Assembly (NCBI GenBank): GCA_934131695.1
Contig: CAKOZV010000002.1
Location: forward strand, 5,316 to 69,315
Length of the DNA stretch: 64,000 nt
Direction of reading: 5' to 3'
DNA from: an uncultured Bacilli bacterium
GTDB taxonomy: Bacteria; Bacillota_I; Bacilli_A; RF39; UBA660
The notes beneath the pieces are model-generated. The model was not told where the DNA came from. It worked only from the letters and a program-made list of their open reading frames with translations, and searched no databases. The translations under genes were made by a program, and so were the position numbers. Positions 30,790 to 62,850 of this stretch are shown one piece after another (position 1 is the first letter of the stretch; every line of letters begins with the position of its first letter).

Positions 30790-31782
30790 TTAAATCTTAT
30801 AATACATTTGGTTTTTACTATTTGGTTTATCAGGAATTGTTAGTTTAATTAAATCTCTTTCTATAGCAGGATGTAGATATTTATTTCTTAATGTATCTTT
30901 TGACTTAATATTTAATTTAGTCATCATTTCAGTAGCAGTCAGAGGTACGTTACGTTCCATAATATTTAATAATTTATTTATATTAATTTCTTCTTCACTA
31001 ACTGGAATGCTAGGTGCACTAAGGGCTTCATCTAGTGTTTCATCAATCATTTTAAGCATAAATTCAATAAATTCAGTGGAATCTCCTTTATTATTGCAAT
31101 TAGCAATAGCTTTATAATAATCAGATTGAAATTTATGTATTTGAGACTCTATTGGTAAATATTCAAATATTTCTTTCCAATTATATAGTAATATATTTTG
31201 CCATAATCTAGCTGTTCTTCCATTTCCGTCACTAAAAGGATGAATGAAAACAAATTCATAATGAAATATACTTGAAAGTATTAGTGGATGTACTTTTTCT
31301 TTATTATCGCTCATCCAAGTAAATAACTGATTTATTAAATTGCCAACTCTTTCTGGTGGTGGACACATGAAAATACACTTATCTCCATCAAAGACACCTT
31401 CATTACCTCTTCTAAATTCACCTGATTCATCTACCGTTAGAAAAGTCATAACTCCATGTATCTTTTTTAAGTCTTCTATAGAGTACGGATTTATTAAAGA
31501 AAGCATTTCATATGCCTTATAAGCATTTTTTACCTCTTGAATATCCTTTTGTGGTCCTATAACTAGTTTACCATCTATTACATCCTTTACCTGTTCTAAC
31601 GTTAAATTGTTATTTTCTATTGCTAAGGATGAATGTATAGAGTTAATCTTTGTTTGTTTTCTTAAATACGGCTTTTTATTTAAATTAGAGTAATTATCTA
31701 ATTTAGAGATTTTTAAAGAAATATTCGATACTCTTGTTAGCATCTCTTGTGTAATAGAAAAAGGCGGAACATAGTTTTCCAT
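30790..31782 (-). CDS. Fic-family protein (class II, N-terminal inhibitory helix) with a C-terminal winged-helix-like tail
   Basis: Fic motif HPFSDGNGRTARL. Upstream SLAIEN fits the (S/T)xxxE(G/N) inhibitory motif. Confidence 0.85.
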   Translation of the reverse strand: MENYVPPFSITQEMLTRVSNISLKISKLDNYSNLNKKPYLRKQTKINSIHSSLAIENNNLTLEQVKDVIDGKLVIGPQKDIQEVKNAYKAYEMLSLINPYSIEDLKKIHGVMTFLTVDESGEFRRGNEGVFDGDKCIFMCPPPERVGNLINQLFTWMSDNKEKVHPLILSSIFHYEFVFIHPFSDGNGRTARLWQNILLYNWKEIFEYLPIESQIHKFQSDYYKAIANCNNKGDSTEFIEFMLKMIDETLDEALSAPSIPVSEEEININKLLNIMERNVPLTATEMMTKLNIKSKDTLRNKYLHPAIERDLIKLTIPDKPNSKNQMYYKI

Positions 31783-34094: not shown

Positions 34095-35375
34095 TTAATT
34101 TTCACTGTCAACATTGTTTTCTTCATATTTTTTATTCTGTTCTTCTGCAAAGAGTTTAGCCATTGTTTCACTATTTCTTGTTAATCTTTTTATAGTTAAC
34201 TCTTCCGCTTTATTATTAGCAAGTCTTAAGTTTCTATCACTAGAGATTAGGGCATCTTTTGTCTTTTGCAAATGATCAATTGTTTTATCTATTTCTTCTA
34301 TTGCTTTACTAAACTTTTCGGATGCTATGCGATAGTTTTTAGCAAAACCACTCTTAAAGGCATTCATATTCTCTTCAAAGTGAGATATATCAATATTTTG
34401 ATTTTGTAAAACAAGCATTTCCTTTTTATATTCTAAGGCATTAAGAGCAGCTCCTCTAATTAAGGTTATTAAAGGAATAAAAAACTGTGGTCTAATAACA
34501 TACATCTTAGGATAACGATAAGAAACATCTACTATGCCCGTATTATAATAATCATTATCAATTTCAAGTAAGGATACAAGTACGGCATATTCACATTTTT
34601 TCTCTTTTCTATCTTTATCAAGTTCTTTAAAGAAGTCTTCATTCTTATGTTTAGTAGCTGTCATATCTGCTTCATTTTTCATCTCAAACATAATAGATAC
34701 AATCTCTGTTTTCTCATCATCATAGTCTCTAAAGATAAAGTCACCTTTAGAACCGGTTCTTGCATCATTATCTTTTTCAAAGTAAGCATTAGGAAATAAT
34801 GGTCTTAAGGTATTAAACTCATTATTACAATGTACTTCTAGACTTTCTCCTATCATCTTAGTTGATTGTCTTGCTTTCATATCTTTATAATAAGCAATCA
34901 TCTCATCTTTATCTTTTAGTTTATTTTCATACACATCTTTGATATTTTTTTCTTTTAAGGCATACTCTTTACTATCTAATTCTAACTGACTTTTCAAACT
35001 AGAAATATTCTTATCTTTTTCATTTTCTAGTTCTTTAATCTTAATATTTAACTTTGCTATTTCTTCTTTATATTCATTAGCTGTTTTAATCTTAGTATTT
35101 TCAACCAAACTATCTTCTAGTTGTTTTTTACTCTTTAATTCTTCATTTAGTTTTGTTATCTCTAAATCTTTTTCTTTTAGCATCGTACTTAATTTCTTTT
35201 CAAGTTCATTCTCAGCTAGCTTTATTGCTTGGTTCTTATCTTTTTCATATTGTTCTTGCCTTGTTGCTATCTCATTTTTAAATTCACTATCTCTTACTTG
35301 TTTTACAATAGAGTCATATTGTTTCTCATCAATTTTAAAAATGGTTCCACAATTAGGACATTTTATTTCATTCAT
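34095..35375 (-). CDS. DUF2130-like protein (N-terminal zinc ribbon, long coiled coil, C-terminal nuclease-like domain)
   Basis: MNEIKCPNCGTIF start, about 150 aa of coiled coil, and a conserved C-terminal block GSKGDFIFRD...FEMKNE. Confidence 0.65.
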   Translation of the reverse strand: MNEIKCPNCGTIFKIDEKQYDSIVKQVRDSEFKNEIATRQEQYEKDKNQAIKLAENELEKKLSTMLKEKDLEITKLNEELKSKKQLEDSLVENTKIKTANEYKEEIAKLNIKIKELENEKDKNISSLKSQLELDSKEYALKEKNIKDVYENKLKDKDEMIAYYKDMKARQSTKMIGESLEVHCNNEFNTLRPLFPNAYFEKDNDARTGSKGDFIFRDYDDEKTEIVSIMFEMKNEADMTATKHKNEDFFKELDKDRKEKKCEYAVLVSLLEIDNDYYNTGIVDVSYRYPKMYVIRPQFFIPLITLIRGAALNALEYKKEMLVLQNQNIDISHFEENMNAFKSGFAKNYRIASEKFSKAIEEIDKTIDHLQKTKDALISSDRNLRLANNKAEELTIKRLTRNSETMAKLFAEEQNKKYEENNVDSEN

Positions 35376-38504: not shown

Positions 38505-39365
38505 CTAGTTTGTTTCATCAAATAACTTTTTATTTTCATAATTAGTTATGATTACTTCTTCTACTTTTCCCCTTTTCTTTCCATTAGCATTAATATTTCT
38601 TTTAGCTTCTATTATATGGATATTGTAGTCTTTATATAAATCTTTTATTAGCGGCGTATTATAATTAGATAGCATTACATAGCACCCTCTACCAGATAGT
38701 TCTTTATATACTTTAGCAAGTCTAATTTGCTCATCTTTACCAAAGCCATTTTCTGTATAACTAGTAAATATTTGTTTTTCCGAATCATATGGTGGATCGA
38801 AGTAGATGAAGTCATTCTTCTTAGCAGTTTTAACCGCTTCTTCAAAATCTGTATTTAATATGGTTATATCATTAAAGTTTAAATATGAATGAATAATACC
38901 AAGGTTTTGTCCTTCATAAGTATTTACTTTTATTTTTTTACCAAATGGTACGTTAAATTCATTCTTACTATTAACTCTATATAAACCGTTGAAACAAGCT
39001 TTATTTAGATAAATTGTTCTAGCTGCTCTTTTATAATCAGCCATTCGTTTAAATTTAGCTTTATCCCTATCTTTATTTCGTATTTCATAATAATAATCTT
39101 CACTATGATTTGTCTCATGATGATTTAATTCATTACACATCTTAGTAAACTTTGTTTCATCTTTTATACAGTTAAAAATATTCATTAATTCTTCATTATA
39201 ATCATTTATCACTGCTTTTCTTGGTGATAATTCAAATAATAAAGCTCCTCCACCAACAAATGGCTCATAGTATGTATTATATTCATCAGGGGCATATAGT
39301 TTTAGTTTATCAATTACTTGTCTTTTACCACCAGCCCACTTTACAAATGGTTTTCCTTTTATCAT
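38505..39365 (-). CDS. Dam-family (alpha-class, D12) N6-adenine DNA methyltransferase
   Basis: PFVKWAGGKRQ, EPFVGGGALLF, NDYN and DPPY blocks in Dam order. Confidence 0.9.
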   Translation of the reverse strand: MIKGKPFVKWAGGKRQVIDKLKLYAPDEYNTYYEPFVGGGALLFELSPRKAVINDYNEELMNIFNCIKDETKFTKMCNELNHHETNHSEDYYYEIRNKDRDKAKFKRMADYKRAARTIYLNKACFNGLYRVNSKNEFNVPFGKKIKVNTYEGQNLGIIHSYLNFNDITILNTDFEEAVKTAKKNDFIYFDPPYDSEKQIFTSYTENGFGKDEQIRLAKVYKELSGRGCYVMLSNYNTPLIKDLYKDYNIHIIEAKRNINANGKKRGKVEEVIITNYENKKLFDETN

Positions 39366-39557
39366 GTTTTTGCCTCCTAGTTAAGTTTCATATCAATTAT
39401 TGTATCAAAAATGTTACTAATTGTCAGTACTAACAATTAGTAAATATGATAATTCATAATGATACAGTAAATTTTCAAATTGATGACTACTAAATCCATT
39501 ATTGTAATTACGTTTAAACTATTAAATGATATTGTTTAGCTAAAAAACGCATCTAAT

Positions 39558-42167
39558 TTATAGCACTAGTGTTTTTCTGTAATTTTTTTCTAATACTTTT
39601 GGTTGTTCCTCTTTCTTTAACAATGTCATATAACTATTAAACTCTTCTATTGCCCTATAATCATTTTTTAGATATTCGCCAATTCTTTCTTGATATGTTT
39701 GAGCTATATACCAATCCTTAGAATAATAAACATTTTTTATTGAATATTTACTTATTGGTATATAATCTGTAGGATTAATTGAGTAATTTATAGAGTTTAT
39801 TACGTTAATTACATTTTCATTATTGTTATTATATCCATCTACAAAAAAGTCAACAAATTTTATTTCATCCCTAGGATCCATATATGAAACATCTGGATTT
39901 TTTGACTTAATATTTCTAAGGTCAAAATTATTATCTTTATATACAATATCTAAAGTTCTGTGATAGATATCTGTATCTTTATACACTTCATCATCCTTTT
40001 CAAATATAGTAGGAGTTGGATAATCTTTTGGAAAAGGAGTTGTGCTTGGCTTTAAGTATGAATCACTACCAATACATGCTAAATTAATTGGTTCATTACT
40101 TTGTTTAGTAATTTCTACTATCTTTTCTATTCCTTCTTTAAATGTAGTAGATATTAAACGACCATTAGCTTCTATTTCTTTATCTACACACTCAATACTA
40201 TTAGCTATTAATACATTTCCATTTCTTTTCAACGGACAAAAAGCAGCAACATCACCTGATTTATCATATATTATCAATATTCTACCATTTCTACAAAGTG
40301 CTGCATGTAACAAATGATTATGTGCTATATCAAGTGTCCTAATACAACAATTAGCTTTATATCCTAGCTCAAATATTTGTGGGTCATCTAATTTCATAGT
40401 TTCATAAGTATAACCTCTTGTAGAAGTTCCTTTTACATAAGGGATACTAGATTCAACTCTTTTTTTCATTTGCGAATATATTTCAACGATTTTTTTTAAT
40501 ATTTCATTATTACTATTGTGTGTTTTATTTCCTAAAATAATATTCTCTAAAAAACTATTATTATTTAATAAGTAATTATCTGGAGTTATTATTTTTCTAT
40601 CTACATCATATTTTTCTGTTTCTAATATTGCATTTACTTTCTTTAATGTAATTTTATTATGACATTTTTCTAATATTTCATCATAGTTGTTATACAAGTA
40701 GTACCATGTTTTATATAATTCAGAATTCTTATCATTAAGCATATTTATAAAATGATTATTATTTGGTGTTTCAAACATAAAGTTAATAAATCTTTTATCT
40801 ATAATAGGTAAGAATTTACTTCCTTCTGATTTCATTTCAACTCTTGTTATATCAGTCTTAGCAACATTATCTAAAAACATTTTGTTATATTGCCCATATT
40901 TACCACTTACTATTTCTATGCTTCTTTCATATCCAAATATAAAGTACATTTTGATACATAACCCATATATTGTAGACAATTCATCTTGAGTCTTATCCTC
41001 TAAAAATTTAGATAATTTATTAATATGTTTAACATTTACTTTAGATAATTGTTCTAGAGTCATGCCATGAAGATATCTAGCATTAGGAAGTGCAATATTA
41101 AATTTTAAATAAAACATTAATTTTAAATCTTTTGTTATTTCATCATAATTATTAGTTAAATAATTTATATCTCTGTAACTTATTAAACCATTATTTAAAT
41201 TTCTTTTTAATGTGTTATAGATCATCTCTTGATTAACAGAACTATTTTTTAATATACGACCAGTTAAATATTTTAAAAATTTCTCTTTAATTGTCTCTTC
41301 CTGATTTTCATTTAATAAGATATCATATATTTCTTTCTCTAGGTTAACCTGTCTATGAAAGTTTGGATGTCTAAATTGATTTTCTATTTTTTCTCTTATT
41401 AATTCGTCTTTAGTTTTTATTTTAGCAAAGAGTTCTTCAAACGACTTACCATTCTTAACTATATTATCTGATATATATTTTTTTATATCATTATTATCAA
41501 TACTATCATTTATATAATTAAGAAAAAATAACTCTTCTGAATTTAATTGTTTCATTATACTGCTATTAATTCTATCTTTATCAGAACCAAATAGGACTCC
41601 TTCTATATTGTTATATCTTTCTCTAAAATCAGTAGGAAGAAGCACCTCCCTAGTATAAAAATTTAATTTTTCTATTATTTTTAACTGTCTGTCAGTAGGC
41701 AATAAGTTAAATTCTTTACTTTTTACTACCTCTTCAAAGACTTTTTTTAAATCGTATGAATGGAAAAATTTGTCTTCAATTTTATTTTCATTCATGACAA
41801 TATATAGAAAATATTTATTACTATATATTTGTTTCTTTATAGTTTGTGATTTTATATCTTTATTCAATTTTTCAATATTTTTTATCGTCTGTTCAGTGCA
41901 AGCAAAGTTATTTAAACTTAATGTTCCTAAAATTAATATTTTTTGAATTTTATCATTAGTCCATAATTTATTTTGCATAGTGAAACCTGAATTTCTAAAA
42001 ATAGAATTGATGGTATTACTATCTAAATTTGAGATAAATTCAATTATACTCGAATCTATTATTGTATTTATTTGTTCATCTGTTATTTTTTTTAAAGCAT
42101 TAATCAATTTTTTAGTTTTATACGATTTAATTTTTTTAAGATCTATTTGTGTAATATTGCTTTGCAT
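39558..42167 (-). CDS. hypothetical large protein (about 870 aa), no recognised domain
   Basis: Long uninterrupted ORF. ATG at 42167 lies 7 nt after GAAGGAG; the tracked TTG start at 42182 is less likely. A Cys/His-containing C-terminal block reads GYKANCCIRTLDIAHNHLLHAALCRNGRILIIYDKSGDVAAFCPL. Confidence 0.65.
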   Translation of the reverse strand: MQSNITQIDLKKIKSYKTKKLINALKKITDEQINTIIDSSIIEFISNLDSNTINSIFRNSGFTMQNKLWTNDKIQKILILGTLSLNNFACTEQTIKNIEKLNKDIKSQTIKKQIYSNKYFLYIVMNENKIEDKFFHSYDLKKVFEEVVKSKEFNLLPTDRQLKIIEKLNFYTREVLLPTDFRERYNNIEGVLFGSDKDRINSSIMKQLNSEELFFLNYINDSIDNNDIKKYISDNIVKNGKSFEELFAKIKTKDELIREKIENQFRHPNFHRQVNLEKEIYDILLNENQEETIKEKFLKYLTGRILKNSSVNQEMIYNTLKRNLNNGLISYRDINYLTNNYDEITKDLKLMFYLKFNIALPNARYLHGMTLEQLSKVNVKHINKLSKFLEDKTQDELSTIYGLCIKMYFIFGYERSIEIVSGKYGQYNKMFLDNVAKTDITRVEMKSEGSKFLPIIDKRFINFMFETPNNNHFINMLNDKNSELYKTWYYLYNNYDEILEKCHNKITLKKVNAILETEKYDVDRKIITPDNYLLNNNSFLENIILGNKTHNSNNEILKKIVEIYSQMKKRVESSIPYVKGTSTRGYTYETMKLDDPQIFELGYKANCCIRTLDIAHNHLLHAALCRNGRILIIYDKSGDVAAFCPLKRNGNVLIANSIECVDKEIEANGRLISTTFKEGIEKIVEITKQSNEPINLACIGSDSYLKPSTTPFPKDYPTPTIFEKDDEVYKDTDIYHRTLDIVYKDNNFDLRNIKSKNPDVSYMDPRDEIKFVDFFVDGYNNNNENVINVINSINYSINPTDYIPISKYSIKNVYYSKDWYIAQTYQERIGEYLKNDYRAIEEFNSYMTLLKKEEQPKVLEKNYRKTLVL

Positions 42168-42306
42168 AGTTTTCTCCTTCAAAAGTAAGATATATTATAG
42201 CACATAAAAAAAGAAAAATGATTATTTTCATCTCTTTTAAGTATATTAAACTAAATAAGATTTGTACCTAACTTATAACAACTAACTTAAAACTTTTTAT
42301 AGTAAA

Positions 42307-42331
42307 CAAAAATGAGAGTCAAATGGCTCTC
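42307..42331 (-). terminator. rho-independent terminator (repeat m1, copy A)
   Basis: Minus strand reads GAGAGCCATTTGACTCTC followed by ATTTTTGTTT. Confidence 0.55.
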
Positions 42332-42444
42332 TTCAGGGGGAAAAATTATGGGGTGATTTTTTGTCATTTTTTTCATTATTATTGTTTTATCACTTGCTAT
42401 ATTTCTCGTAAATAGCCCTATTTTACACATCTTGCTCTATGTAG

Positions 42445-42468
42445 TTGTTCCCCATTTGTTCCCAAGAA
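42445..42468 (+). repeat. 24-nt repeat m2, copy A (tandem TTGTTCCC half-sites)
   Basis: TTGTTCCC-CAT-TTGTTCCC-AAGAA matches 50527-50550 at 21/24 positions. Confidence 0.8.
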
Positions 42469-42504
42469 AAAAAGTGATGACTATTTTTCAACACTTTTTC
42501 GAAA

Positions 42505-43674
42505 TTAGTTTTTAAATAATTCTTCCCATTTCTTAATATTTTCTTTATCATCATCAGTTAATAAATATTTCATTATAACTTTTGACAATTTATCTATATC
42601 TTCTTTTTGATGTAAAACGTGTATTTTTCTATGACAATTAGGGCATATAGCAACAGTATTATAAATTGCATCAGGACCGTTTTCAGCTAATGTTATTACA
42701 TGATGTGATTCAAGATATGGCCTTCCATTTTTATCTTTAAAAGGCGCTTCCTTTCCACAAAGATCACATACACCATTAGCTCTTTCCTTTGTATACTCAG
42801 CTATGTATTGATTCCTTTCACGATATATAGTTTTAACTTCTTTTGTAGAAATATTTTCAGATTCTGCAATTTTAGCTCTATTTTTGATTTCGCTCGAATC
42901 AAACTTTCTTACTTCTTTTAACTTTTCATTTTCACTTTTTTCGATATCCTCAATATCAATTATTAATGATTTAGTTTGATCTAATCTCTTTAGAGGAAAT
43001 TTTATTACTTTTCTAATTGCACCATTTATATCAGCTTCTTCTGATTGATATGGAGTTCCTGCCAGTTTCACCTCTCCATCATAATAGTATTCGTTATCTT
43101 TATATGATTCAAATAAATATACTTTTATTCCTTCTCTTTCAGCAATTGTTAATGTTTTATTTTGTGCATAAGAAATACTTTGATCATTTTCAGTACCCAT
43201 TCCTGTATAATTTAATATTCCGTCATCTGTCCATTGATCGTCATATAAAGGATTGTTATGTTTTGCAATTAGAACTAATGAGTTAGTTTCCTTTGACCTT
43301 CTCATACCTCCCATATTTGAACATTTAAAAGTATTAGCGATTTCACTATTTGAATAAATATTTCCTACTATTAAATCTTCAATTCCACAATAGTGATCCA
43401 TTTCATCAGAATAATTTTCTCTCAAATAGTCAGCTAATGACTCATTACTTAAAATCCCATTTTCTTCTAAAAATTTGAAGTCTTCTGCATATTTATGATT
43501 TCCACCTTTGAATTTTAGAAAATGCTCATACATATTTCCTGTAAATTTTATATATTTAATCCTACTATATTCTATTTGAACTCTTTTCTTATATTTTTCA
43601 TATTCAGGATGATCGTTTATAAAATCTAAAGTTTTATCAAAATTATCTAATACAAATTTTACTCCTCTATCCAT
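42505..43674 (-). CDS. HNH endonuclease with an SRA/PUA-like modified-base reader domain (candidate type IV methyl-directed restriction enzyme)
   Basis: C-terminal HNH: CDLCGKEAPF...LESHHVITLAENGPD...NTVAICPNCHRKIH. The central block GGMRRSKETNSLVLIAKH..YDDQWTDDGILNYTGMGTENDQ...NKTL...GIKVYLFE...YYYDGEVKL resembles the SRA (YDG) pattern. Confidence 0.65.
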   Translation of the reverse strand: MDRGVKFVLDNFDKTLDFINDHPEYEKYKKRVQIEYSRIKYIKFTGNMYEHFLKFKGGNHKYAEDFKFLEENGILSNESLADYLRENYSDEMDHYCGIEDLIVGNIYSNSEIANTFKCSNMGGMRRSKETNSLVLIAKHNNPLYDDQWTDDGILNYTGMGTENDQSISYAQNKTLTIAEREGIKVYLFESYKDNEYYYDGEVKLAGTPYQSEEADINGAIRKVIKFPLKRLDQTKSLIIDIEDIEKSENEKLKEVRKFDSSEIKNRAKIAESENISTKEVKTIYRERNQYIAEYTKERANGVCDLCGKEAPFKDKNGRPYLESHHVITLAENGPDAIYNTVAICPNCHRKIHVLHQKEDIDKLSKVIMKYLLTDDDKENIKKWEELFKN

Positions 43675-44060
43675 TATTTCATCTCCATAACATATTTTGC
43701 TAAAGGTATATCAGCAGGTGCTAAATCATAGTTTAATAATGCTGGTTTATCAACCCATTTGTATTCAGAATGATCATGTAAATGAAATTCTCCCGATAAA
43801 TATTTACATCTATATAATTTTAAATCAACTGTTTTAGTTGGATATTTACACACATTATTTATTAAAAAACTTTCTGCACTAATTAATAATTCAAATTCTT
43901 CTTTTATTTCTCTCTCTATAGCATGCTTTTCATCTTCATTATCTTGAACTTTTCCGCCAGGGAACTCCCATTTACCAAAAACATTAGGATCTCCTGTAGA
44001 TCGTTTTGCTATTAATACCTTATTATCATTTTCTATTAAAGCCGCAACAACATTAATCAT
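43674..44060 (-). CDS. NUDIX hydrolase, MutT/NudG-like (d)NTP pyrophosphohydrolase
   Basis: Nudix box GKWEFPGGKVQDNEDEKHAIEREIKEEF. The TAA stop shares one base with the ATG of the HNH gene (TAATG). Confidence 0.85.
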   Translation of the reverse strand: MINVVAALIENDNKVLIAKRSTGDPNVFGKWEFPGGKVQDNEDEKHAIEREIKEEFELLISAESFLINNVCKYPTKTVDLKLYRCKYLSGEFHLHDHSEYKWVDKPALLNYDLAPADIPLAKYVMEMK

Positions 44061-44169
44061 ATTATTTCACCTTCACTTCTATTATATCATATAAAAAAGC
44101 AAGAATTTTACAAACACTAAAAATAGTGGAAAATTCTTTTAAAAAGTTGTATTTTTTTGCGAATACATG

Positions 44170-44198
44170 TTGACCCTTTCGTTTTTTTAAGGTATAAT
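44170..44198 (+). promoter_or_regulatory. sigma-A-type promoter of the methyltransferase pair
   Basis: TTGACC, 17-nt spacer, TATAAT, about 27 nt upstream of the M1 start. Confidence 0.6.
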
Positions 44199-44225
44199 AG
44201 ATTATAGTGAGAAAGGAGGAAAAAA

Positions 44226-45029
44226 ATGAAGGCAAATATTATATACCAAAAATCAAGTGAATCTATGAAAGAAATCAATGATGAATCCGTTAATATGATT
44301 GTCACATCTCCTCCATATAATATTAACATTAATTATGGTAATAAAACTAACAAAGGTAAAATTACAGCAAGTAAGGGAATTAAATACAAAGACAACTTAG
44401 AAGAAGAGGAATACCGTAAAATGTTAAAAAATGTTTTCTCAGAATGCAAACGCGTATTAAAAAAAGATGGTTCAATTTTTATAAACATTAAAAACAGATA
44501 TAATAATGGAATAATTATTCCTCCATTTTGGATTCAAGACTATTTTGAGGACATGTATTTAAAAAATATTATAATATGGAATTTTGATTGGGGCGGTTCT
44601 ACTAATAAAAGATTTGCTCCTAGATATGAATATGTTTTTTGGTTTACAAAAAACAAAGAAAACTATAAATTTAATTTAGATGCAGTTAAAATACCGGCTT
44701 TAAACTACAGACCAGACAGGTATAAGAGCCAATTAAAAAATCCCAGCGATGTATGGAAGATATCTATGGTATCTGGCAATTTTGAAGAAAGAACTGAACA
44801 TCCAGCGCAATATCCAGAAAGGTTAATTGAACGAATAATAGGCTGTTCGACCATACAAAATGATATTGTTCTAGATCCATTTATGGGTTCAGGAACAACT
44901 GCTGCTGTAGCAAAAAAATTAAACAGAAATTATATTGGATATGAAATTGTACCAGAATACATTGAAATATCAGAAAACAGATTAAAAAAAATACAGAAAG
45001 GAGAGTTATTAGATGAACGAGAATATTAG
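44226..45029 (+). CDS. beta-class DNA methyltransferase M1 (SPPY motif; N4-cytosine or N6-adenine)
   Basis: Motif IV IVTSPPYNI is N-terminal. HPAQYPERL and motif I DPFMGSGTTAAVA are C-terminal. Confidence 0.9.
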   Translation: MKANIIYQKSSESMKEINDESVNMIVTSPPYNININYGNKTNKGKITASKGIKYKDNLEEEEYRKMLKNVFSECKRVLKKDGSIFINIKNRYNNGIIIPPFWIQDYFEDMYLKNIIIWNFDWGGSTNKRFAPRYEYVFWFTKNKENYKFNLDAVKIPALNYRPDRYKSQLKNPSDVWKISMVSGNFEERTEHPAQYPERLIERIIGCSTIQNDIVLDPFMGSGTTAAVAKKLNRNYIGYEIVPEYIEISENRLKKIQKGELLDEREY

Positions 45030-45867
45030 AATTGAGTTCGGTGATTGTAGGGAATTATTAAAAACTATTCCTGACAATTCAGTCACATTAGTAGTTACTT
45101 CTCCTCCATATAATATTGGAAAAAAGTATGGTAAATATAGTGATAAAATATCATTAGAAGAATGGAAAGAATTGATTAATGATGTTACCAAAGAAATCTA
45201 TAGAATATTAAAACCAAACGGAAGTTTCTTCTTAAATTTATCTCCTATACCATTAGGAAATGATAAAGAGATTCTACCTTTACCTTACATAGGATATGAT
45301 ATTATGAAAGAAAATAATTTCAAAATTAGAAATATAATAACTTGGACTTTTAATAATATGCAAAACTGTACGAATAGATTATCCGGTCGATATGAAAATA
45401 TTGTTTGGGGCGTAAAAGATTTAAATAATTATATTTTTAATTTAGACGAAATACGAATACCATATATTACCAAAAATGATAAAAGATTAGTTGGCGGAAT
45501 TGGTAGAAACCCTACTGACGTATGGTACTTTGATAGAGTAAATAATATGACGAAGAAAAAATTGGATCTTACTCATCCTACAATTTATCCATTACCTATG
45601 ATTGTTAGAATATTAAAAATGAGTAGCAATGTTGGAGATACAATATTAGATCCTTTTGCTGGAAGTGGAACTTCGCTGGTAGCTGCAAAGATTCTAAATA
45701 GAAAAGCAATAGGCTTTGAATTAGATACTAAATACAAAAATGAATGTAAAAGAAGATTAGCTACTGAAGGAAATATTTCTGTATCTGTATTTGACGAATA
45801 TAAAAGTGACGAAGAAAAAAAACAAGCATTTTTAAATGCTATATCAAATCTAAAAATAGACAAATAA
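45013..45867 (+). CDS. beta-class DNA methyltransferase M2 (SPPY motif)
   Basis: VVTSPPYNI, HPTIYPLPM and DPFAGSGTSLVAA. It overlaps M1 by 17 nt. Confidence 0.9.
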   Translation: MNENIRIEFGDCRELLKTIPDNSVTLVVTSPPYNIGKKYGKYSDKISLEEWKELINDVTKEIYRILKPNGSFFLNLSPIPLGNDKEILPLPYIGYDIMKENNFKIRNIITWTFNNMQNCTNRLSGRYENIVWGVKDLNNYIFNLDEIRIPYITKNDKRLVGGIGRNPTDVWYFDRVNNMTKKKLDLTHPTIYPLPMIVRILKMSSNVGDTILDPFAGSGTSLVAAKILNRKAIGFELDTKYKNECKRRLATEGNISVSVFDEYKSDEEKKQAFLNAISNLKIDK

Positions 45868-45887
45868 AAGGCAGAAGCACTGCCTTT
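45867..45887. terminator. bidirectional hairpin between the convergent M2 and TGT-like genes
   Basis: AAAGGCAG-AAGCA-CTGCCTTT with flanking A and T runs. Confidence 0.6.
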
Positions 45888-47261
45888 TTATAATTGTTCG
45901 AAAATAATAACTAAACCTAAATTCAAATCATTTGGATAATCTTTACAAAAATCCTGAATTGAAGAATAACCAGATATTACTTCACATAGTTTTCTATGCT
46001 GTATAACTGCATGAAGTCCCATTAATTGTCTACTAAAATAGTTTGCTTCGCTATCTGTATCTTTAATTGAATATAACTTTTTTATCCTATTAACATTATT
46101 AGCTTCTTCACACACATCACAGCCACACAATTCCATTTTATCATCAACAAGATTTATATCAATATATTGACATGGTTCTTTTCTAAGTGTATTGTTTGAA
46201 TTTATTCCTCCTACAAAATATTTGCTAAATTTTGCATCTGCTGGAGAAGTAGTAGAAAAAACATATTTAGTAGATTTTGCATTACCATCTCCTACTCTTC
46301 TAACAGGAGAAGCAGCATCAAAAGAAGTGGCACCACTAAAGTAATTAGTTGCAATATTAGGATATCCTCCACAGCCTAATGCGTGAATAGGTCTGTTATC
46401 AGCTATCAATTCACGTACAATTTTTGCAGCTCTAGCAGGACCTACTGTAGATACATAATCTTTTTTCCCTGTATCATTAAAATCTATATCTTTATACCAA
46501 CTTTTATCGAGTTTCTTATAACTTGCGATACCGCCTAATGCAAATCCCCAAAATTTGTAACTATGCTTTCTTTCCAAAGACAAAACGAACTTAGTACATT
46601 TTTTATAATCCTCTTGCAAATCACCATGAATAGTTGCCAACACTTTTGGATAATAATCGGGATGTTCTTTTAAATACTTTATTGTTTCTTCTAGTAATAT
46701 ATTGTTAACTTCATCAGCATTCATTGCATTAAAGAATTTCTTCAGCTCAACATCAGAACCTTCCCCATCTTTTTCAGTATATTTTCCACCTAAATCAAAC
46801 GACACAACAATATCAATCTTTAAACTATTAGCAAAATTATAATATTCTTTCATCTGAATGATTAATTCATCAAGAAATTTATCAAATTTGTAGTTTACCT
46901 TTTTTGCAACATATTTAACAATGTTAAACGCACCTGAATCAAGTAGAAATACTTTGGAATTAAAATCGTATTTTTTAGGCTTATATCCATTATATATTTC
47001 ACCTTTTTTTATTAACATATTTCTAATATCGTTATATACATCACCAATTCTACTATATCCAGATAAATCATCAAACGCATGACTTTGAAAAGAATGTGGA
47101 ATGTTATTATTTATATAGTAGTAATTTATTAGTGCAGGTGTATCTCCAGTTAGTTCAGCATAAACTATTTCTCTATCCTTATCACCATTACCTCCGCCAT
47201 AATTATACACTTGAAAAAAAGATGGAATTGGCAATTTTTTTCCATGAACATCATAATTCAT
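45888..47261 (-). CDS. tRNA-guanine-transglycosylase-fold protein (TGT/DpdA-like, candidate nucleic-acid base-exchange enzyme)
   Basis: ATG at 47261 lies 8 nt after AGGAG. Ordered TGT hallmark blocks are PIPSFFQV, FLLDSGAFN, IDIVVSFD, ATIHGD, FALGGIA, RPIHALGCGGYP...TSFDAASPVRRVGDG and the zinc motif CGCDVC...LHAV. Confidence 0.7.
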   Translation of the reverse strand: MNYDVHGKKLPIPSFFQVYNYGGGNGDKDREIVYAELTGDTPALINYYYINNNIPHSFQSHAFDDLSGYSRIGDVYNDIRNMLIKKGEIYNGYKPKKYDFNSKVFLLDSGAFNIVKYVAKKVNYKFDKFLDELIIQMKEYYNFANSLKIDIVVSFDLGGKYTEKDGEGSDVELKKFFNAMNADEVNNILLEETIKYLKEHPDYYPKVLATIHGDLQEDYKKCTKFVLSLERKHSYKFWGFALGGIASYKKLDKSWYKDIDFNDTGKKDYVSTVGPARAAKIVRELIADNRPIHALGCGGYPNIATNYFSGATSFDAASPVRRVGDGNAKSTKYVFSTTSPADAKFSKYFVGGINSNNTLRKEPCQYIDINLVDDKMELCGCDVCEEANNVNRIKKLYSIKDTDSEANYFSRQLMGLHAVIQHRKLCEVISGYSSIQDFCKDYPNDLNLGLVIIFEQL

Positions 47262-47272
47262 TTTTATCACTC

Positions 47273-48061
47273 CTAATTCATATTAACTCCATTCTTTTGC
47301 ATTACCTTTATGATAGAAACCAACTCTTCTAATGTACCCATTTCTAAAAATTTAGAATATATTTTTTCTTTATATACAGATTGAGGATTTTTTTCTAAAT
47401 CTCCCTCTCTCTCCTGTCTTTCAAATACTTTTTCATTTATAAGTGTTTCCTTGACCTGTTCACTTGTTTCAAAGAATATTCCTTTTACACATGGATAGTC
47501 TATCCAATGAATATAAAAAACAGGCCTTTCAATATCAGATTCAATAATTTCAAGTTGTCTTTCAATTTTGGCTTTATCAAGTGTAGCACTTCCCTCATAG
47601 CAATATCTATTAATCTTTTGAATTGCAGAAATAAAAGGAGCACAATGATACTTAACTTCAAAATAAGCCAATATACCTTTATCTTTTCCTAAAATCATAC
47701 AATCAGGATATTTCTTATTGCTTTTATCTCCATGAGTTGCTTTAATCTTTAAATGATCAGTAAAATAATCTATTAAAATATTTTCAAAAAATTGGCCCAT
47801 TATGACATCATACTTGACATGACTTTTATTTCTTGGGCTCATAAAATATGCACCGCATTTTTTGCACATATCCTTTAATTGTGGAATCTCTTCTTTTAAT
47901 TCCTTAACTTTTTTAGGATCTTCTATATTATTTTCTTTATACATTTTATCAAAACATTCATCATTAAAATCATCATAAGTTAACTGGTTTTCAAATGTAG
48001 GTACATTCTTAAAAAAATCATCTATCCTATCCCTATATATATCCAAAATTTCATTATACAT
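47273..48061 (-). CDS. PD-(D/E)xK-type nuclease (candidate restriction endonuclease)
   Basis: 262 aa with the motif YPDCMILGKDKGILAYFEVKYH (PD-x14-EVK). RBS is GGTGGAG. The TAG stop lies 11 nt before the ATG of the TGT-like gene. Confidence 0.5.
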   Translation of the reverse strand: MYNEILDIYRDRIDDFFKNVPTFENQLTYDDFNDECFDKMYKENNIEDPKKVKELKEEIPQLKDMCKKCGAYFMSPRNKSHVKYDVIMGQFFENILIDYFTDHLKIKATHGDKSNKKYPDCMILGKDKGILAYFEVKYHCAPFISAIQKINRYCYEGSATLDKAKIERQLEIIESDIERPVFYIHWIDYPCVKGIFFETSEQVKETLINEKVFERQEREGDLEKNPQSVYKEKIYSKFLEMGTLEELVSIIKVMQKNGVNMN

Positions 48062-48196
48062 ACTACCACTCCACCATAAAATAAGTTTCTTATAACAAAA
48101 TTATAACATATATTTATGCAATTTTTGATTTTTCGATATAAATTTGTTGCAAAAAATCAATTTTAGAGTGATTAATACAAAGATTGGAGGATAGAT

Positions 48197-48607
48197 ATGA
48201 TTAGAAAATGTACAGACGAAGATATAAGTGATGAAGAATGTGAAAAGGTTATTGATCCCTTTTATGAAAACTATGATAGTTATTTGGAAGAATATGTTAT
48301 TCCTGAAGTTATAGCATTTAATATTGCTAGTTCTTTTTATAGAAATGCTATGTGGAAAGCAACTTTTGAACAACATTTTAATTCTGCTTTTGATACATTT
48401 AATCTGATGTGTAGAAATTATAAAAAAATGAAAGGTGAGGTTATTAAACTGCTCAGATTAAAATATTCTTTAGAAATTATCAACGAAGATCCTTTACAGA
48501 CTCGTCACCGGTTTTTAATAATTCTAACTTTTCATTTAATGTTTCTGTCAATAAGTCTAATGCATAAATCTTTGTTTTTCCAAATTTATTTTTATTCATT
48601 TCATTAA
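48197..48607 (+). CDS. hypothetical acidic protein; 3' third runs antisense into the KAP gene
   Basis: ATG lies 6 nt after TGGAGGA. The first ~95 aa look coding. The last ~40 aa (FLIILTFHLMFLSISL...) look like antisense read-through of the KAP 3' end. Confidence 0.4.
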   Translation: MIRKCTDEDISDEECEKVIDPFYENYDSYLEEYVIPEVIAFNIASSFYRNAMWKATFEQHFNSAFDTFNLMCRNYKKMKGEVIKLLRLKYSLEIINEDPLQTRHRFLIILTFHLMFLSISLMHKSLFFQIYFYSFH

Positions 48608-50405
48608 TTCTTTTTATCAAAAGTTCAAGATTTTCTCTATCCATCATATAAAAATCCCTTATATTACCAAAATGATAAACATTGTCTATTGTATATTTGA
48701 AATAAAAAATATCTTTTGTAGGACACTTTTTAATATTTTCTATAATTAAATTAACATCCAATTTATTTAAAAATCCCTCGCCATGAATAACATTATTCTT
48801 GATATAAAGGTTATAAAGTTTTTCACCCCAGTTTTCTGATAACAATATAGTAACTATTGTATCGGAACTATTTTTACTTCTATTTTGATTAATAATGTCA
48901 TTAAATTCTTTTGAATACTTATTGTAAACATCCACTGTTTTTTGATCATTTAACATTGTATGAAAATCAATATAATCAACTTTATTATCAACTAAGCTTT
49001 TCTTCATTAGAGCTACTAACTGCTCAATATAATCAGGAAATAGTCCAATTACTTCTAAGCCTGATATAATCCTTAATAATTTGGGAAAAACTTGATATCC
49101 ATAATGAAAATTTTTAATCATTTTATCTAAATATTCTTTTATTTCACTATCTTCTAATTCCCAATAAGCTTCTAAATTAAAATATGGATCATCATTTGGT
49201 AAAGCATTTTCTATTTCAACTGTTATATATTGATTTAAAGTGTTCTTCATCTGACTTAAATTAAGGCTAGAAGAACATAAATAATCACTAATAAAATCAA
49301 ACGCAGTAAAATAATCAGTCATTTTTTGTAATCCATCATCAGTGAATGATGTTGCACCAGAATATTTTGCACCATTTAATTTTTGTTTTATTTCAACACC
49401 ATTTTTTAATAATACAGACATATGAATTGTATTAATAAATGTTAATTCTAAAATTCTATTTTCTTTTTCTTCATATTTTTGCTTTTTAATTTGATTAAAT
49501 ATAATTTCATATTCATTTAATAAAAAAATTATAGTTCTAATGTTACAACAATTATCTTTTTTTAGCGTTTCAACTAATAAACTCTTTTGGGATTTCAAAT
49601 ACTCATAGTATTTCTTATTTTTAACATGGTTTTCTAAAAGATTATTTATTATTTTTTCCAAATTTGGCACATAATCTATAGTTTTACCAATTAATTTTTC
49701 TTTTATTAATTTATACTTATTTTCTGTGTTATATGTTTTGTTAACTCTTTTTTTAATATCTTCTATCTTTGGCTTAGTAACTGTATCATCACTTTGCCAT
49801 GAATTAACTTTTTTCTTTTCGCCATACTCAATATTATTATATAAGCAACTAATTATTTTTAATTCATAATTATTATCTATATTTAGCTTTTCTATTTCGT
49901 TTTCGTTAGCAACTATAATACACTTAACATTCTTGTGTTCCACATAATCATTAATAAACCCCAAGACTTCATTAATAGGTATATTAACTCTTTCTAAATC
50001 GTCAAATATAATTAATTTTTTCGAAACATCTATAAAATTACTCATTAACTCAGTTGCATCAATACTTTTTGCATCTGGTAAAGGTATTTTAAAAATACTT
50101 GAAATGGCCGATGAAAAGCTTCTATAACCAGCGCCTAATATTTTGCCTCCCTTTTTTATTTTTTTATTTATTTTCATATTTTTGTTCATTATTGAGTATA
50201 GTATTTTTTTACTTATATCACTTGTATTACTAAGCCCATATAAAGAAACATATACACTATCATTAATTTTTGCTAGTATTTTGTTTTTAACAAAATATGT
50301 TTTACCGCATCCCCACTCTCCATTAAGTAGAATTGCATACTGACTATTAACATCAGAGTAGTATGTTTTAATTATTTCAATTATTTCTTCCTCGCTTAAA
50401 TTCAT
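48480..50405 (-). CDS. KAP-family P-loop NTPase
   Basis: 641 aa. N-terminal YAILLNGEWGCGKTYF (Walker A), LIIFDDLER (Walker B) and a long helical insert are typical of KAP NTPases. Confidence 0.8.
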   Translation of the reverse strand: MNLSEEEIIEIIKTYYSDVNSQYAILLNGEWGCGKTYFVKNKILAKINDSVYVSLYGLSNTSDISKKILYSIMNKNMKINKKIKKGGKILGAGYRSFSSAISSIFKIPLPDAKSIDATELMSNFIDVSKKLIIFDDLERVNIPINEVLGFINDYVEHKNVKCIIVANENEIEKLNIDNNYELKIISCLYNNIEYGEKKKVNSWQSDDTVTKPKIEDIKKRVNKTYNTENKYKLIKEKLIGKTIDYVPNLEKIINNLLENHVKNKKYYEYLKSQKSLLVETLKKDNCCNIRTIIFLLNEYEIIFNQIKKQKYEEKENRILELTFINTIHMSVLLKNGVEIKQKLNGAKYSGATSFTDDGLQKMTDYFTAFDFISDYLCSSSLNLSQMKNTLNQYITVEIENALPNDDPYFNLEAYWELEDSEIKEYLDKMIKNFHYGYQVFPKLLRIISGLEVIGLFPDYIEQLVALMKKSLVDNKVDYIDFHTMLNDQKTVDVYNKYSKEFNDIINQNRSKNSSDTIVTILLSENWGEKLYNLYIKNNVIHGEGFLNKLDVNLIIENIKKCPTKDIFYFKYTIDNVYHFGNIRDFYMMDRENLELLIKRINEMNKNKFGKTKIYALDLLTETLNEKLELLKTGDESVKDLR

Positions 50406-54294: not shown

Positions 54295-54370
54295 TGGTGG
54301 TTCCAGGTGGAATCGAACCACCGACACAAGGATTTTCAGTCCTTTGCTCTACCGACTGAGCTATGAAACC
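54295..54370 (-). tRNA. tRNA-Phe (GAA)
   Basis: Anticodon arm AAGGA-CTGAAAA-TCCTT; encoded CCA. Confidence 0.9.
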
Positions 54371-54376
54371 AAATAA

Positions 54377-54453
54377 TGGCGGTTCCGACGGGGCTCGAAC
54401 CCGCGATCTTCTGCGTGACAGGCAGACGTGTTAACCAGCTGCACCACGGAACC
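54377..54453 (-). tRNA. tRNA-Asp (GUC)
   Basis: Anticodon arm TCTGC-CTGTCAC-GCAGA; encoded CCA. Confidence 0.9.
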
Positions 54454-54457
54454 ATTA

Positions 54458-54533
54458 TGGTTGCGGGAGGAGGACTCGAACCTCCGACCTCTGGGTTATG
54501 AGCCCAACGAGCTACCAACTGCTCCATCCCGCG
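54458..54533 (-). tRNA. initiator tRNA-fMet (CAU)
   Basis: C1:A72 mismatch in the acceptor stem (CGCGGGA/TCCCGCA). Three G:C pairs close the anticodon loop (GGGCTCATAACCC). Confidence 0.85.
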
Positions 54534-54554
54534 ATATCAATATATAAATTTAAG

Positions 54555-54647
54555 TGGCGGAGGAAAAGGGATTCGAACCCCTGCGTCGCTTGCGCGACCT
54601 CCCGGTTTTCAAGACCGGTCCCTTCAACCAGACTTGGGTATTCCTCC
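54555..54647 (-). tRNA. tRNA-Ser (UGA)
   Basis: Long variable arm; anticodon arm CCGGT-CTTGAAA-ACCGG. Confidence 0.9.
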
Positions 54648-54654
54648 AAATAAG

Positions 54655-54743
54655 TGGTGCCTAAGGCCGGACTTGAACCGGCACGAAGTATGACCTTCGC
54701 AGGATTTTAAGTCCTGTGCGTCTACCAATTCCGCCACTCAGGC
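54655..54743 (-). tRNA. tRNA-Leu (UAA)
   Basis: Long variable arm; anticodon arm CAGGA-CTTAAAA-TCCTG. Confidence 0.9.
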
Positions 54744-54749
54744 ACATCA

Positions 54750-54825
54750 TGGTGACCCGCATGAGATTCGAACTCATGACCCTTTGATTAAAAGTCAAAT
54801 GCTCTACCGACTGAGCTAGCGGATC
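54750..54825 (-). tRNA. tRNA-Lys (UUU)
   Basis: Anticodon arm TTTGA-CTTTTAA-TCAAA. Confidence 0.9.
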
Positions 54826-54838
54826 AAATATTTAAAAA

Positions 54839-54913
54839 TGGTTGCCTCGGTTAGATTCGAACTAACGCATGTCAGAGTCAAAGTCTGATGCCTTACCACT
54901 TGGCTACGAGGCA
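54839..54913 (-). tRNA. tRNA-Gln (UUG)
   Basis: Anticodon arm TCAGA-CTTTGAC-TCTGA. Confidence 0.9.
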
Positions 54914-54923
54914 ATAACTAAGA

Positions 54924-55007
54924 TGGTGGAGAGAGATGGATTCGAACCATCGAACCCGAAGGAACAGATTTACAGTCTGTCGCGTTTAGCCACTTCGCTA
55001 CCTCTCC
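54924..55007 (-). tRNA. tRNA-Tyr (GUA)
   Basis: Long variable arm; anticodon loop CTGTAAA. Confidence 0.9.
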
Positions 55008-55024
55008 GACTATAAATAATAAAA

Positions 55025-55100
55025 TGGTGCCGAAACCAGGAATCGAACCCGGAACCTACTGATTACAAATCAGTTGCTCTACCTATTGAGCTATTTCGGC
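55025..55100 (-). tRNA. tRNA-Thr (UGU)
   Basis: Anticodon arm ACTGA-TTTGTAA-TCAGT. Confidence 0.9.
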
Positions 55101-55107
55101 ATCTTAA

Positions 55108-55184
55108 TGGTGGGCGATATAGGACTCGAACCTATGACCCCCTGCTTGTAAGGCAGGTGCTCTAACCAACTGAGCTAATCGCCC
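55108..55184 (-). tRNA. tRNA-Val (UAC)
   Basis: Anticodon arm CCTGC-CTTACAA-GCAGG. Confidence 0.9.
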
Positions 55185-62393: not shown

Positions 62394-62470
62394 GGGCTTG
62401 TAGCTCAGTTGGTTAGAGCGCTCGCTTGATAAGCGAGAGGTCACAGGTTCAAGTCCTGTCAGGCCCACCA
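62394..62470 (+). tRNA. tRNA-Ile (GAU)
   Basis: Anticodon arm CTCGC-TTGATAA-GCGAG; encoded CCA. Confidence 0.95.
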
Positions 62471-62477
62471 TTAAGAT

Positions 62478-62554
62478 GCCTCAATAGCTCAGTTGGTTAG
62501 AGCACTTGACTGTTAATCAAGGGGTCCTAGGTTCAAGTCCTAGTTGAGGCGCCA
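62478..62554 (+). tRNA. tRNA-Asn (GUU)
   Basis: Anticodon arm CTTGA-CTGTTAA-TCAAG; encoded CCA. Confidence 0.95.
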
Positions 62555-62562
62555 TTTTTTTT

Positions 62563-62639
62563 GGCCAGTTGGTGAAGTGGCTTAACACACTGCCCTTTCA
62601 CGGCAGCATTCACGGATTCGAATTCCGTACTGGTCACCA
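62563..62639 (+). tRNA. tRNA-Glu (UUC)
   Basis: Anticodon arm CTGCC-CTTTCAC-GGCAG; encoded CCA. Confidence 0.9.
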
Positions 62640-62649
62640 TAATGATTAC

Positions 62650-62674
62650 AAAGCCTTATTTTCAAGGCTTTTTA
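62650..62674 (+). terminator. terminator of the tRNA cluster
   Basis: AAGCCTT-ATTTTC-AAGGCTT followed by TTTT. Confidence 0.7.
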
Positions 62675-62841: not shown

Positions 62842-62850
62842 ATTTTATGA

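Follow-up and report, generated by a model that had tools for sequence, protein, structure and literature searches.

A 64,000-nucleotide stretch of DNA from an uncultured Bacilli bacterium (hereinafter the window, meaning the whole stretch analysed) carries at positions 44226-48061 a real, conserved and unannotated module, which we rate as belonging to the restriction-modification (R-M) kind and one component of which has a fold not previously tied to restriction. Its four genes lie in two convergent units: two methyltransferase genes (M1 and M2) on the plus strand meet, on the minus strand, the genes for a PD-(D/E)xK nuclease (R1) and for a 457-aa protein resembling tRNA-guanine transglycosylases (TGT; hereinafter the TGT-like protein). 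Judged from homologous loci and structural models, a TGT-fold enzyme with an apparently intact catalytic site is the obligate, often translationally coupled partner of the nuclease and of the conserved methyltransferase pair. We consider, with confidence just short of even, that the four genes make up one R-M-type module in which the TGT-like enzyme belongs to the restriction side and attacks guanine at unmethylated sites, while R1 cuts the DNA. The features of the region are as follows.

44226-45029, plus strand: M1, beta-class amino-methyltransferase, SPPY at residue 28, DPFMGSGT.
45013-45867, plus strand: M2, second beta-class methyltransferase, SPPY at residue 30.
45866-45888, both strands: bidirectional hairpin terminator, AAAAGGCAG-AAGCA-CTGCCTTTT, 9 pairs.
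45888-47261, minus strand: TGT-like protein, 457 aa, predicted TIM-barrel transglycosylase fold with D108, D156, D315 and a zinc site (C379/C381/C384/H417).
47268-47274, minus strand: ribosome-binding site AGGAGTG of the TGT-like gene, read from the sequence, overlapping the R1 stop and lying 6 nt before the ATG at 47261.
47273-48061, minus strand: R1, 262 aa, helical N-terminal domain and minimal PD-(D/E)xK core (E93, P119-D120, E135-V-K137).
48062-48496, no strand: non-coding region upstream of the R1/TGT-like operon, to the end of a conserved block (block comparison and check of open reading frames (ORFs)).
44170-44198, plus strand: sigma-70-like promoter match upstream of M1, TTGACC-17-TATAAT, best match, 11/12.

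M1 and M2 overlap by 17 nt. The R1 stop codon (TAG, 47275-47273) is separated by 11 nt from the TGT-like ATG at 47261, the spacing given in the original prediction for this region, which had been made from the letters alone; the ORF list gives a GTG start at 47270 for this gene, and the N-termini of homologues favour the ATG. R1 and the TGT-like gene are co-transcribed as one operon. The hairpin fills the 20-nt gap between the M2 and TGT-like stops and is the sole terminator-like site in 43600-48700. The promoter-like match, 28 nt ahead of the M1 ATG, fits the consensus only, and the region holds just as many such sites as expected from shuffling.

Family models match the TGT-like protein remotely. 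Pfam TGT gives 22.7 bits (E 6e-5), below its gathering cut-off of 26.3 bits, and reaches only E<=0.01 for 12 of 26 close homologues; NCBIfam tgt_general matches at E 1e-5 across 50 residues, and the PADLOC TGT model at 17.3 bits over residues 57-156 only. Neither this protein nor R1 matched PDB sequences in single-sequence and close-family-profile searches. The AlphaFold2 (AF2) model, built from 26 homologues, has a pLDDT of 91 and a pTM of 0.91, and the top 50 Foldseek matches to it in PDB are all Zymomonas mobilis TGT (E~5e-9, probability 1.0, target-normalised TM 0.65, 14% identity). Alignment by hhalign of the narrow family to Escherichia coli TGT, for which we used a reference sequence identical to PDB 10fa, returned a probability of 1.25%, insignificant though the alignment looked correct; with 35 divergent relatives added, the 36-sequence family profile aligned globally with a probability of 95.6% (E 4.5e-9). 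One relative (locus L035; locus labels are ours), 29% identical to the window protein, scores 64 bits against Pfam TGT, above the cut-off, and many divergent relatives carry PF01702 in precomputed tables; since these homologues pass PF01702, membership in the TGT superfamily holds by transitivity. On this profile and model evidence we take the 457-aa ORF to be a true but very divergent member of the superfamily. Its TGT fold had been proposed from a series of motifs, all of which are present in the translation (PIPSFFQV, FLLDSGAFN, IDIVVSFD, ATIHGD, FALGGIA, RPIHALGCGGYP...TSFDAASPVRRVGDG and CGCDVC...LHAV), and the structure comparison bears the proposal out, with the all-TGT Foldseek result, the 95.6% hhalign probability, and both aspartates and the zinc ligands aligned. 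The family is small, with 79 representatives at 50% clustering among 1.84 billion proteins.

Like the bacterial tRNA TGTs of Z. mobilis and E. coli, the protein is predicted to have a TIM barrel, three aspartates, a pocket formed by GG and Leu/Met, and a C-terminal CxCxxC...H zinc subdomain. Unlike them, it shares only ~14% identity with these enzymes, and its gene is linked to those of DNA methyltransferases and a nuclease instead of to queA or queuosine genes. The predicted active-site and zinc-site residues correspond as follows.

D108: E. coli D89, Z. mobilis D102; general acid/base.
D156: E. coli D143, Z. mobilis D156; substrate binding.
H212: E. coli Gln of GIIQG; pocket.
G243-G244: E. 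coli GG; pocket.
L295: E. coli pocket Met; pocket.
D315: E. coli D264, Z. mobilis D280; nucleophile.
C379, C381, C384 and H417: E. coli C302, C304, C307 and H333; zinc ligands.

Among 36 TGT-like relatives, down to 21% identity, D156 and D315 are kept in all 36 and D108 in 35; a GGG motif, R30, K160-x-T162-x-K164, H293 and R321-R322 are additional invariant residues of the family. A short form of 373-379 aa occurs in Clostridium perfringens (L027, 7840-8979), Aliarcobacter (L029, 7810-8931) and Turicibacter (L030, 7836-8975). It is 22-24% identical to the window protein, has no match in Pfam and lacks the CxCxxC...H subdomain, yet keeps all three catalytic aspartates, and its partner R1 and methyltransferases are 59-74% identical to those of the window. 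Because D156, D315 and D108 are kept even in this zinc-less form, a catalytic role is likely.

This conservation also bears on a distinctly unlikely alternative, namely that the TGT-like protein is a reader or specificity subunit that flips a base to recognise the target or check its methylation and thereby licenses R1, with no net chemistry or a futile exchange of guanine for guanine. The gene linkage described below speaks for such a role as much as for attack on guanine, R1 consists of only a minimal nuclease core and a helical domain, and TGT enzymes are generally known to exchange guanine for guanine reversibly, a reaction that also serves as the DpdA assay. Against it stands the nucleophile D315, present in 36/36 relatives including the zinc-less form, an invariance not expected of a pure binding module; the eukaryotic non-catalytic paralogue QTRT2 has lost its catalytic residues.

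The nuclease residues of R1, E93, P119-D120 and E135-V-K137, are invariant in 25 homologues, so that the PD-x14-EVK motif originally read in the 262-aa ORF is present as described, with 14 residues between P119-D120 and E135. Its AF2 model (pLDDT 83) shows a helical N-terminal domain followed by the nuclease core, and Foldseek ranks the Hjc structure 1ob8 first (1.5e-4), then D212, RecU, the SPARDA nuclease, HincII and DpnI; searches of R1 against Pfam, NCBIfam, PADLOC and PHROG returned no family match. Sequence and model thus agree on a Hjc/RecU-like minimal PD-(D/E)xK nuclease core. We also considered an Fe-S or zinc cluster in R1, as C36, C66, C69, C121, C154 and C191 are invariant in close homologues, and rejected a general role for one because the R1 proteins of Streptococcus salivarius and L037 lack C66 and C69.

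Most relatives encode directly after R1 a 149-187-aa paralogue of its core (hereinafter R2), as in the class I loci L001-L025 (e.g. L004, 9389-9949). The motif has decayed in R2: the glutamate is lost in 13/13 proteins, the lysine is kept only in L011 and L013, and the aspartate in 3/13, a pattern by which R2 is predicted to be catalytically dead. R2 is missing from precisely those systems in which R1 and the TGT-like gene are co-transcribed, and neither R2 nor a remnant of it was found in the window. A heterodimer of two active PD-(D/E)xK subunits as in BbvCI was rejected, given an R2 that lacks catalytic residues and does not occur in the window. PN replaces PD in the R1-like protein of L035. 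With R1 a minimal resolvase-like core and R2 decayed, a second DNA-engaging enzyme in the system becomes plausible.

M1 and M2 both match PF01555 (E 6.8e-65 and 4.4e-50), and SPPY lies upstream of DPFxGSGT, the beta-class order; the description of two overlapping beta-class methyltransferases in the original prediction therefore stands. M1 matches PADLOC MTase_II at 1.7e-60, its best solved relative is the DNA cytosine-N4 methyltransferase 8s9m (1.3e-29), and M1 and M2 are 35-37% identical to each other. Since the SPPY motif is typical of N4-cytosine methyltransferases, the mark they set is probably N4-methylcytosine. A search for a characterised close relative from which to infer the recognition sequence found none, and on plasmids M1 has no relative closer than 38% identity.

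M1 orthologues are 65-73% identical in 27/28 loci and 39% in a fused archaeal type; those of M2 are 57-78% identical across loci. In the archaeal-type loci L035 (7408-11533) and L038 (4878-8927), the two beta-class methyltransferases form a single fusion protein of 525-526 aa. Both loci also encode a DUF1156-type DPPY methyltransferase of 719-729 aa.

We surveyed neighbourhoods starting from homologues of the TGT-like protein (20 genome loci included), from R1 homologues and from divergent TGT-like relatives, counting as distinct loci the 28 with enough flanking DNA. Each of the 28 has an R1 homologue and a pair of beta-class methyltransferases together with a TGT-like gene; the apparent exceptions (L014, L016 and L026) are contig-end truncations or fragments. 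The survey proposed originally thus gave a strongly positive answer, the nuclease and the methyltransferase pair accompanying the TGT-like gene in 28/28. The module is found in Firmicutes, Bacteroidota, Campylobacterota, Mollicutes and a Nitrososphaerota archaeon, its hosts including Clostridia, Ruminococcus, Selenomonadaceae, Streptococcus, Turicibacter, Bacilli, Bacteroides, Aliarcobacter, Paracholeplasma, Elusimicrobia and the archaeon. At least five gene orders occur among the loci.

M1-M2-R1-R2 converging on the TGT-like gene: the commonest.
All genes co-oriented on one strand: TGT-like gene first or last.
R1-TGT-like converging on M2-M1: the window, L007, L008, L022-24, C. perfringens, Aliarcobacter, Turicibacter and L036.
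HTH-TGT-like-R1 (HTH, helix-turn-helix) converging on the methyltransferases: S. salivarius.
R1 divergent from the TGT-like gene: Rummeliibacillus (L034).

The convergent arrangement noted at the outset, with the nuclease and TGT-like genes facing the methyltransferases, therefore holds in the window and is not a general rule, being one of at least five. Similarly, all four genes of the proposed set recur, while most relatives add R2 and some TGT-like forms (~375 aa) lack the zinc site. In the loci without R2, R1 and the TGT-like gene are adjacent and co-oriented, except in L034, where they are adjacent and divergent; the gaps between them are 4-44 nt in seven loci, and the genes overlap in L036 and L037.

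The linkage also bears on another reading, which we think very unlikely: M1, M2 and R1, with or without R2, would form a complete type II system, and the TGT-like protein would counter a phage counter-defence by removing phage 7-deazaguanines (dPreQ0, dG+ and others), either through excision or through exchange back to guanine, re-sensitising phage DNA to R1. 7-Deazaguanine in DNA blocks many type II enzymes (PMC5567051, PMC6884629), and a TGT-type pocket suits guanine or 7-deazaguanine; an accessory role, however, would not predict 100% linkage and translational coupling to R1 over 28 loci.

Protein identities to the window (per cent) differ among the four components.

L022: M1 73, M2 74, R1 63, TGT-like 55.
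Ruminococcus flavefaciens: M1 71, M2 75, R1 50, TGT-like 61.
Rummeliibacillus: M1 72, M2 72, R1 61, TGT-like 40.
C. perfringens: M1 72, M2 72, R1 61, TGT-like 22.
S. salivarius: M1 72, M2 70, R1 48, TGT-like 33.
L036: M1 66, M2 61, R1 41, TGT-like 29.
L037: M1 71, M2 57, R1 33, TGT-like 29.
L038 (archaeal, fused): M1 39, M2 31, R1 35, TGT-like 27.

Overall, R1 ranges over 33-63% and the TGT-like protein over 22-65%, whereas the methyltransferases keep to 57-75% and plateau near 72%. Fast divergence of R1 and the TGT-like protein next to conserved methyltransferases matches the usual pattern of restriction genes. The identities of R1 and the TGT-like protein are discordant with each other, which suggests modular exchange and not a tightly co-evolving complex.

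Two lineages carry a small regulator-like gene in the module. In S. salivarius, the end of the gene for a 69-aa HTH_3 protein (E 1.4e-15) coincides with the TGT-like start, and R1 follows 4 nt past the TGT-like stop; in Paracholeplasma, the TGT-like gene has that of a 66-aa HTH_26 protein 25 nt upstream, and M1 is preceded by a paralogous HTH gene. In type II systems, C-proteins sit before the restriction gene and delay expression of the toxic nuclease. A check of minus-strand ORFs upstream of R1 in the window found no C-protein or HTH gene.

Several lines of evidence speak for the TGT-like enzyme belonging to the restriction side: its obligate linkage to M1, M2 and R1 in the 28 distinct loci across several phyla; the R1/TGT-like operon converging on M1-M2 across a shared terminator, the classical layout of restriction against modification genes; the C-protein-like HTH gene directly upstream in S. 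salivarius and Paracholeplasma; the fast evolution of the TGT-like protein and R1, as of restriction genes; and the absence from the loci of precursor or ATPase partner genes, to which we return below. Of the three functions that the original prediction left undecided, they lead us to favour the restriction-side roles, effector or recognition subunit, over a second self-mark.

In the mechanism we propose, M1 and M2 would protect host DNA by methylating an asymmetric site, one strand each, and restriction would be supplied by the R1/TGT-like operon. The TGT-like enzyme would flip a guanine of an unmethylated target into the pocket formed by D108, D156, H212, G243-G244 and L295; D315 would attack C1' and expel the guanine, giving a covalent enzyme-DNA intermediate, of the glycosyl-enzyme kind known from TGT and DpdA, that could resolve to an abasic site or to an exchanged base. 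R1, paired with R2 in most relatives, would then cut the backbone at or near the lesion. We infer that DNA is the substrate, that unmethylated and not self DNA is acted upon, what becomes of the intermediate, and how labour is divided with R1.

Several points weigh against this mechanism. The known DNA-acting enzyme of the TGT family, DpdA, is a modifier and not an effector (PMC10164549). At 262 aa, R1 is large enough that it could be a self-sufficient sequence-specific type II enzyme, with the TGT-like protein an add-on. In the commonest layout, R1-R2 is transcribed together with the methyltransferases, leaving the TGT-like gene on its own. The identities of R1 and the TGT-like protein disagree, as in C. 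perfringens (61% and 22%). The methylated bases are probably C or A and not the excised G, and the mechanism gives no account of how methylation would block the enzyme; protection through SPPY methylation of the cytosine opposite the target guanine is a speculative answer. The C-protein argument, finally, comes from two lineages only.

The comparison with DpdA of the Dpd system and of phages (7UI4) brings up the question of a self-mark directly. Like DpdA, the TGT-like protein belongs to the TGT superfamily, stands in a context of DNA self/non-self distinction and has the two-aspartate site of a double displacement. Unlike DpdA, to which it is not orthologous, it is not accompanied by DpdB, DpdC or DpdD-K, its partners being SPPY methyltransferases and a PD-(D/E)xK nuclease. 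For these absences, the window gene scan covered 40 ORFs, namely 39 of the 56 ORFs of >=110 aa and a 91-aa ORF at 48101-48376, with a 1489-aa ORF (6808-11277) and 16 shorter ORFs falling outside it. None of the 40 encodes dpdB, dpdC, DpdD-K, queC, queD, queE or folE, in keeping with the earlier statement that dpdB, queC/D/E and folE are missing; the locus gene tables likewise contain no Dpd, que, folE or Cap9 partner. The related claim that the locus is unlike either a Dpd cluster or a classical annotated R-M system also survives, with no Dpd or que partners found and with the TGT-like protein and R1 both unannotated.

It is nonetheless conceivable, if rather unlikely, that the TGT-like protein writes a second self-mark, replacing guanines of the host DNA by a 7-deazaguanine or some other free base whose synthesis is encoded elsewhere in the genome, in the manner of DpdA, so that the two methylations are joined by a third protective mark, and that R1 (with or without R2) is the sole restriction enzyme. 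DpdA, the only known DNA-acting TGT homologue, carries out such an exchange with the same two aspartates (PMC10164549), and the catalytic and guanine-pocket residues are conserved here. Phage DpdA proteins can draw on precursor genes at other locations (PMC6884629); the window being only 64 kb, que genes may lie elsewhere in this genome. Yet no DpdB-like ATPase was found, though DpdA needs one in vitro, and there are no preQ0 genes among the window ORFs scanned or in the 28 neighbourhoods. Three modification enzymes for one small nuclease would be unparsimonious; the TGT-like protein evolves far faster than the methyltransferases, to the point that a 22%-identical zinc-less protein is swapped into systems otherwise 72% identical; and C-protein genes precede the TGT-like gene. 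Nor is the family profile closer to DpdA (7UI4, E 0.024) than to tRNA TGT (E 4.5e-5), the values for archaeal TGT (ArcTGT) and Cap10 (9ntn) being 0.021 and 0.24.

The last of these values touches on a further reading, that the TGT-like protein acts on tRNA or, as Cap10 does, on protein, and is tied to the R-M genes for regulation or addiction. Recruitment of the TGT fold to protein deazaguanylation is documented (bioRxiv 10.1101/2025.04.06.647259), and the profile match to Cap10, albeit weak, exists. We regard this reading as scarcely probable: no locus has a Cap9/QueC-like or CD-NTase gene, the invariant partners are DNA enzymes only, and canonical tRNA-TGT features are only remotely matched. 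Cap10 of type IV CBASS is like the TGT-like protein a TGT-fold enzyme recruited to an anti-phage system; it differs in conjugating a deazaguanine to a protein N-terminus together with the QueC-like Cap9, a partner the module lacks, and the window scan found neither Cap9 nor a CD-NTase.

Returning to attack on guanine within an R-M module, the nearest relatives in layout are the type II systems for asymmetric sites, such as BbvCI and Bpu10I, which combine two methyltransferases with a two-subunit nuclease. The module shares with them overlapping methyltransferase genes, a PD-(D/E)xK nuclease mostly accompanied by a paralogous subunit, convergent or tandem units, an occasional C-protein and horizontal mobility. 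It differs in that R2 lacks catalytic residues and is dispensable in the window type, in the obligate extra TGT-fold enzyme and in having no restriction-enzyme annotation: RefSeq names the TGT-like protein, R1 and R2 all 'hypothetical protein' and the methyltransferases 'site-specific DNA-methyltransferase'. Searches of mobile-element collections gave no match to the TGT-like protein or R1 in PLSDB, to either TGT-like form in INPHARED, or to the TGT-like protein, R1 or the short TGT-like form in PHROG.

In chemistry, the closest precedents are R.PabI and R.CcoLI of the HALFPIPE fold, in which base removal at the recognition site is inhibited by methylation (PMC10273834, PMC4357717). If our preferred reading is right, methylation-inhibited base removal as restriction chemistry would be common to both. 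R.PabI has a half-pipe fold as against the TIM barrel here, excises adenine hydrolytically and needs no partner nuclease gene, whereas the module is predicted to target guanine through a covalent Asp intermediate and always encodes a dedicated nuclease. It is thus possible, although we hold this with more doubt than the module assignment itself, that the TGT-like proteins are 'restriction transglycosylases', a second base-excision class of restriction enzymes after R.PabI and structurally unrelated to it, which would attack guanine via a covalent Asp-deoxyribose link to leave a crosslink, an abasic site or a swapped base at which the nuclease makes the break.

Nearly all restriction enzymes are phosphodiesterases. 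A 2023 review gives the R.PabI family, the sole restriction glycosylases, as the only exception described (PMC10273834); in a 2025 review of R-M systems, DpdA is the only form in which TGT homologues appear (PMC12707154). Among published proposals, the closest is a TGT/GNAT modification module predicted in BREX-related systems (PMC12839542), whose partners differ from M1-M2-R1. Our full-text searches of the literature turned up no account of a TGT-like component in type II R-M systems.

Base attack, if confirmed, would constitute a new class of restriction chemistry, and innate immunity would gain a new chemistry if the restriction side of an R-M system indeed depended on a base-exchange enzyme of TGT fold. 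To its work on tRNA, in marking DNA and in conjugation to protein, the TGT superfamily would then add a possible role as DNA-damaging effector, and a pocket built for guanine could offer a sequence-programmed tool for guanine excision or replacement. At present, loci such as those of C. perfringens, S. salivarius, Turicibacter and gut Clostridia are read as orphan methyltransferases beside 'hypothetical proteins', and defence-system and R-M annotation pipelines therefore miss them.

The module lies in a variable defence hotspot flanked by a copper ATPase gene and recG on a low-GC (~27%) spore-former chromosome. A 6.2-kb block (42308-48496) comprising HNH, NUDIX, M1, M2, TGT-like and R1 genes is 93-97% identical in L007 and L008, two metagenome-assembled genomes from an uncultured Clostridium sp. 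and an unclassified bacterium. Within it, the start of the NUDIX hydrolase gene (43674-44060, minus strand) overlaps the stop of the gene for a 389-aa HNH protein (42505-43674, minus strand). The NUDIX protein is NudG-like, a pyrimidine dNTP diphosphatase, and matches the PADLOC candidate PDC-S07 (1.4e-42); the HNH protein matches the PADLOC type IV methyl-directed restriction endonuclease model (1.4e-19) and phrog_15103 (2.8e-79). The pair accompanies the module in L007 and L008 (94-100% identity) and in no other locus, and is probably a separate modification-dependent system.

On the far side of the module, a 641-aa KAP-family P-loop NTPase (48480-50405, minus strand) matches the PADLOC candidate defence family PDC-S49 (1.2e-54); it is absent from L007 and L008, which have other DNA at this place next to recG, and is an insertion relative to both. 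A 136-aa ORF (48197-48607, plus strand) divergent from R1 has no family match; its first ~95 residues are protein-like, its tail overlaps the KAP gene and the block end at 48496, and it may be what the KAP insertion left of a small gene. At 38505-42182 (minus strand), a Dam-family methyltransferase gene (DPPY, TIGR00571 1e-82) adjoins that of an 874-aa protein, for which Pfam, NCBIfam and PHROGs gave no match and PADLOC only a weak one to a type I specificity subunit (E 0.0014); the latter may work with the Dam-like enzyme as a restriction or defence protein that has escaped recognition.

Farther away, tRNA genes form an array of ten at 54295-55184 (minus strand), which accounts for a rise in GC at 53-56 kb, and a cluster of four at 62394-63274 (plus strand). 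All four queuosine-type tRNAs (Asp-GTC, Tyr-GTA, His-GTG and Asn-GTT) are encoded within the window, probably by coincidence. Other genes of mobile or defence type encode a HerA/DUF87 ATPase (21397-23175), a Y2 transposase (24449-24943), a Fic protein (30790-31782) and a DUF2130 protein (34095-35375).

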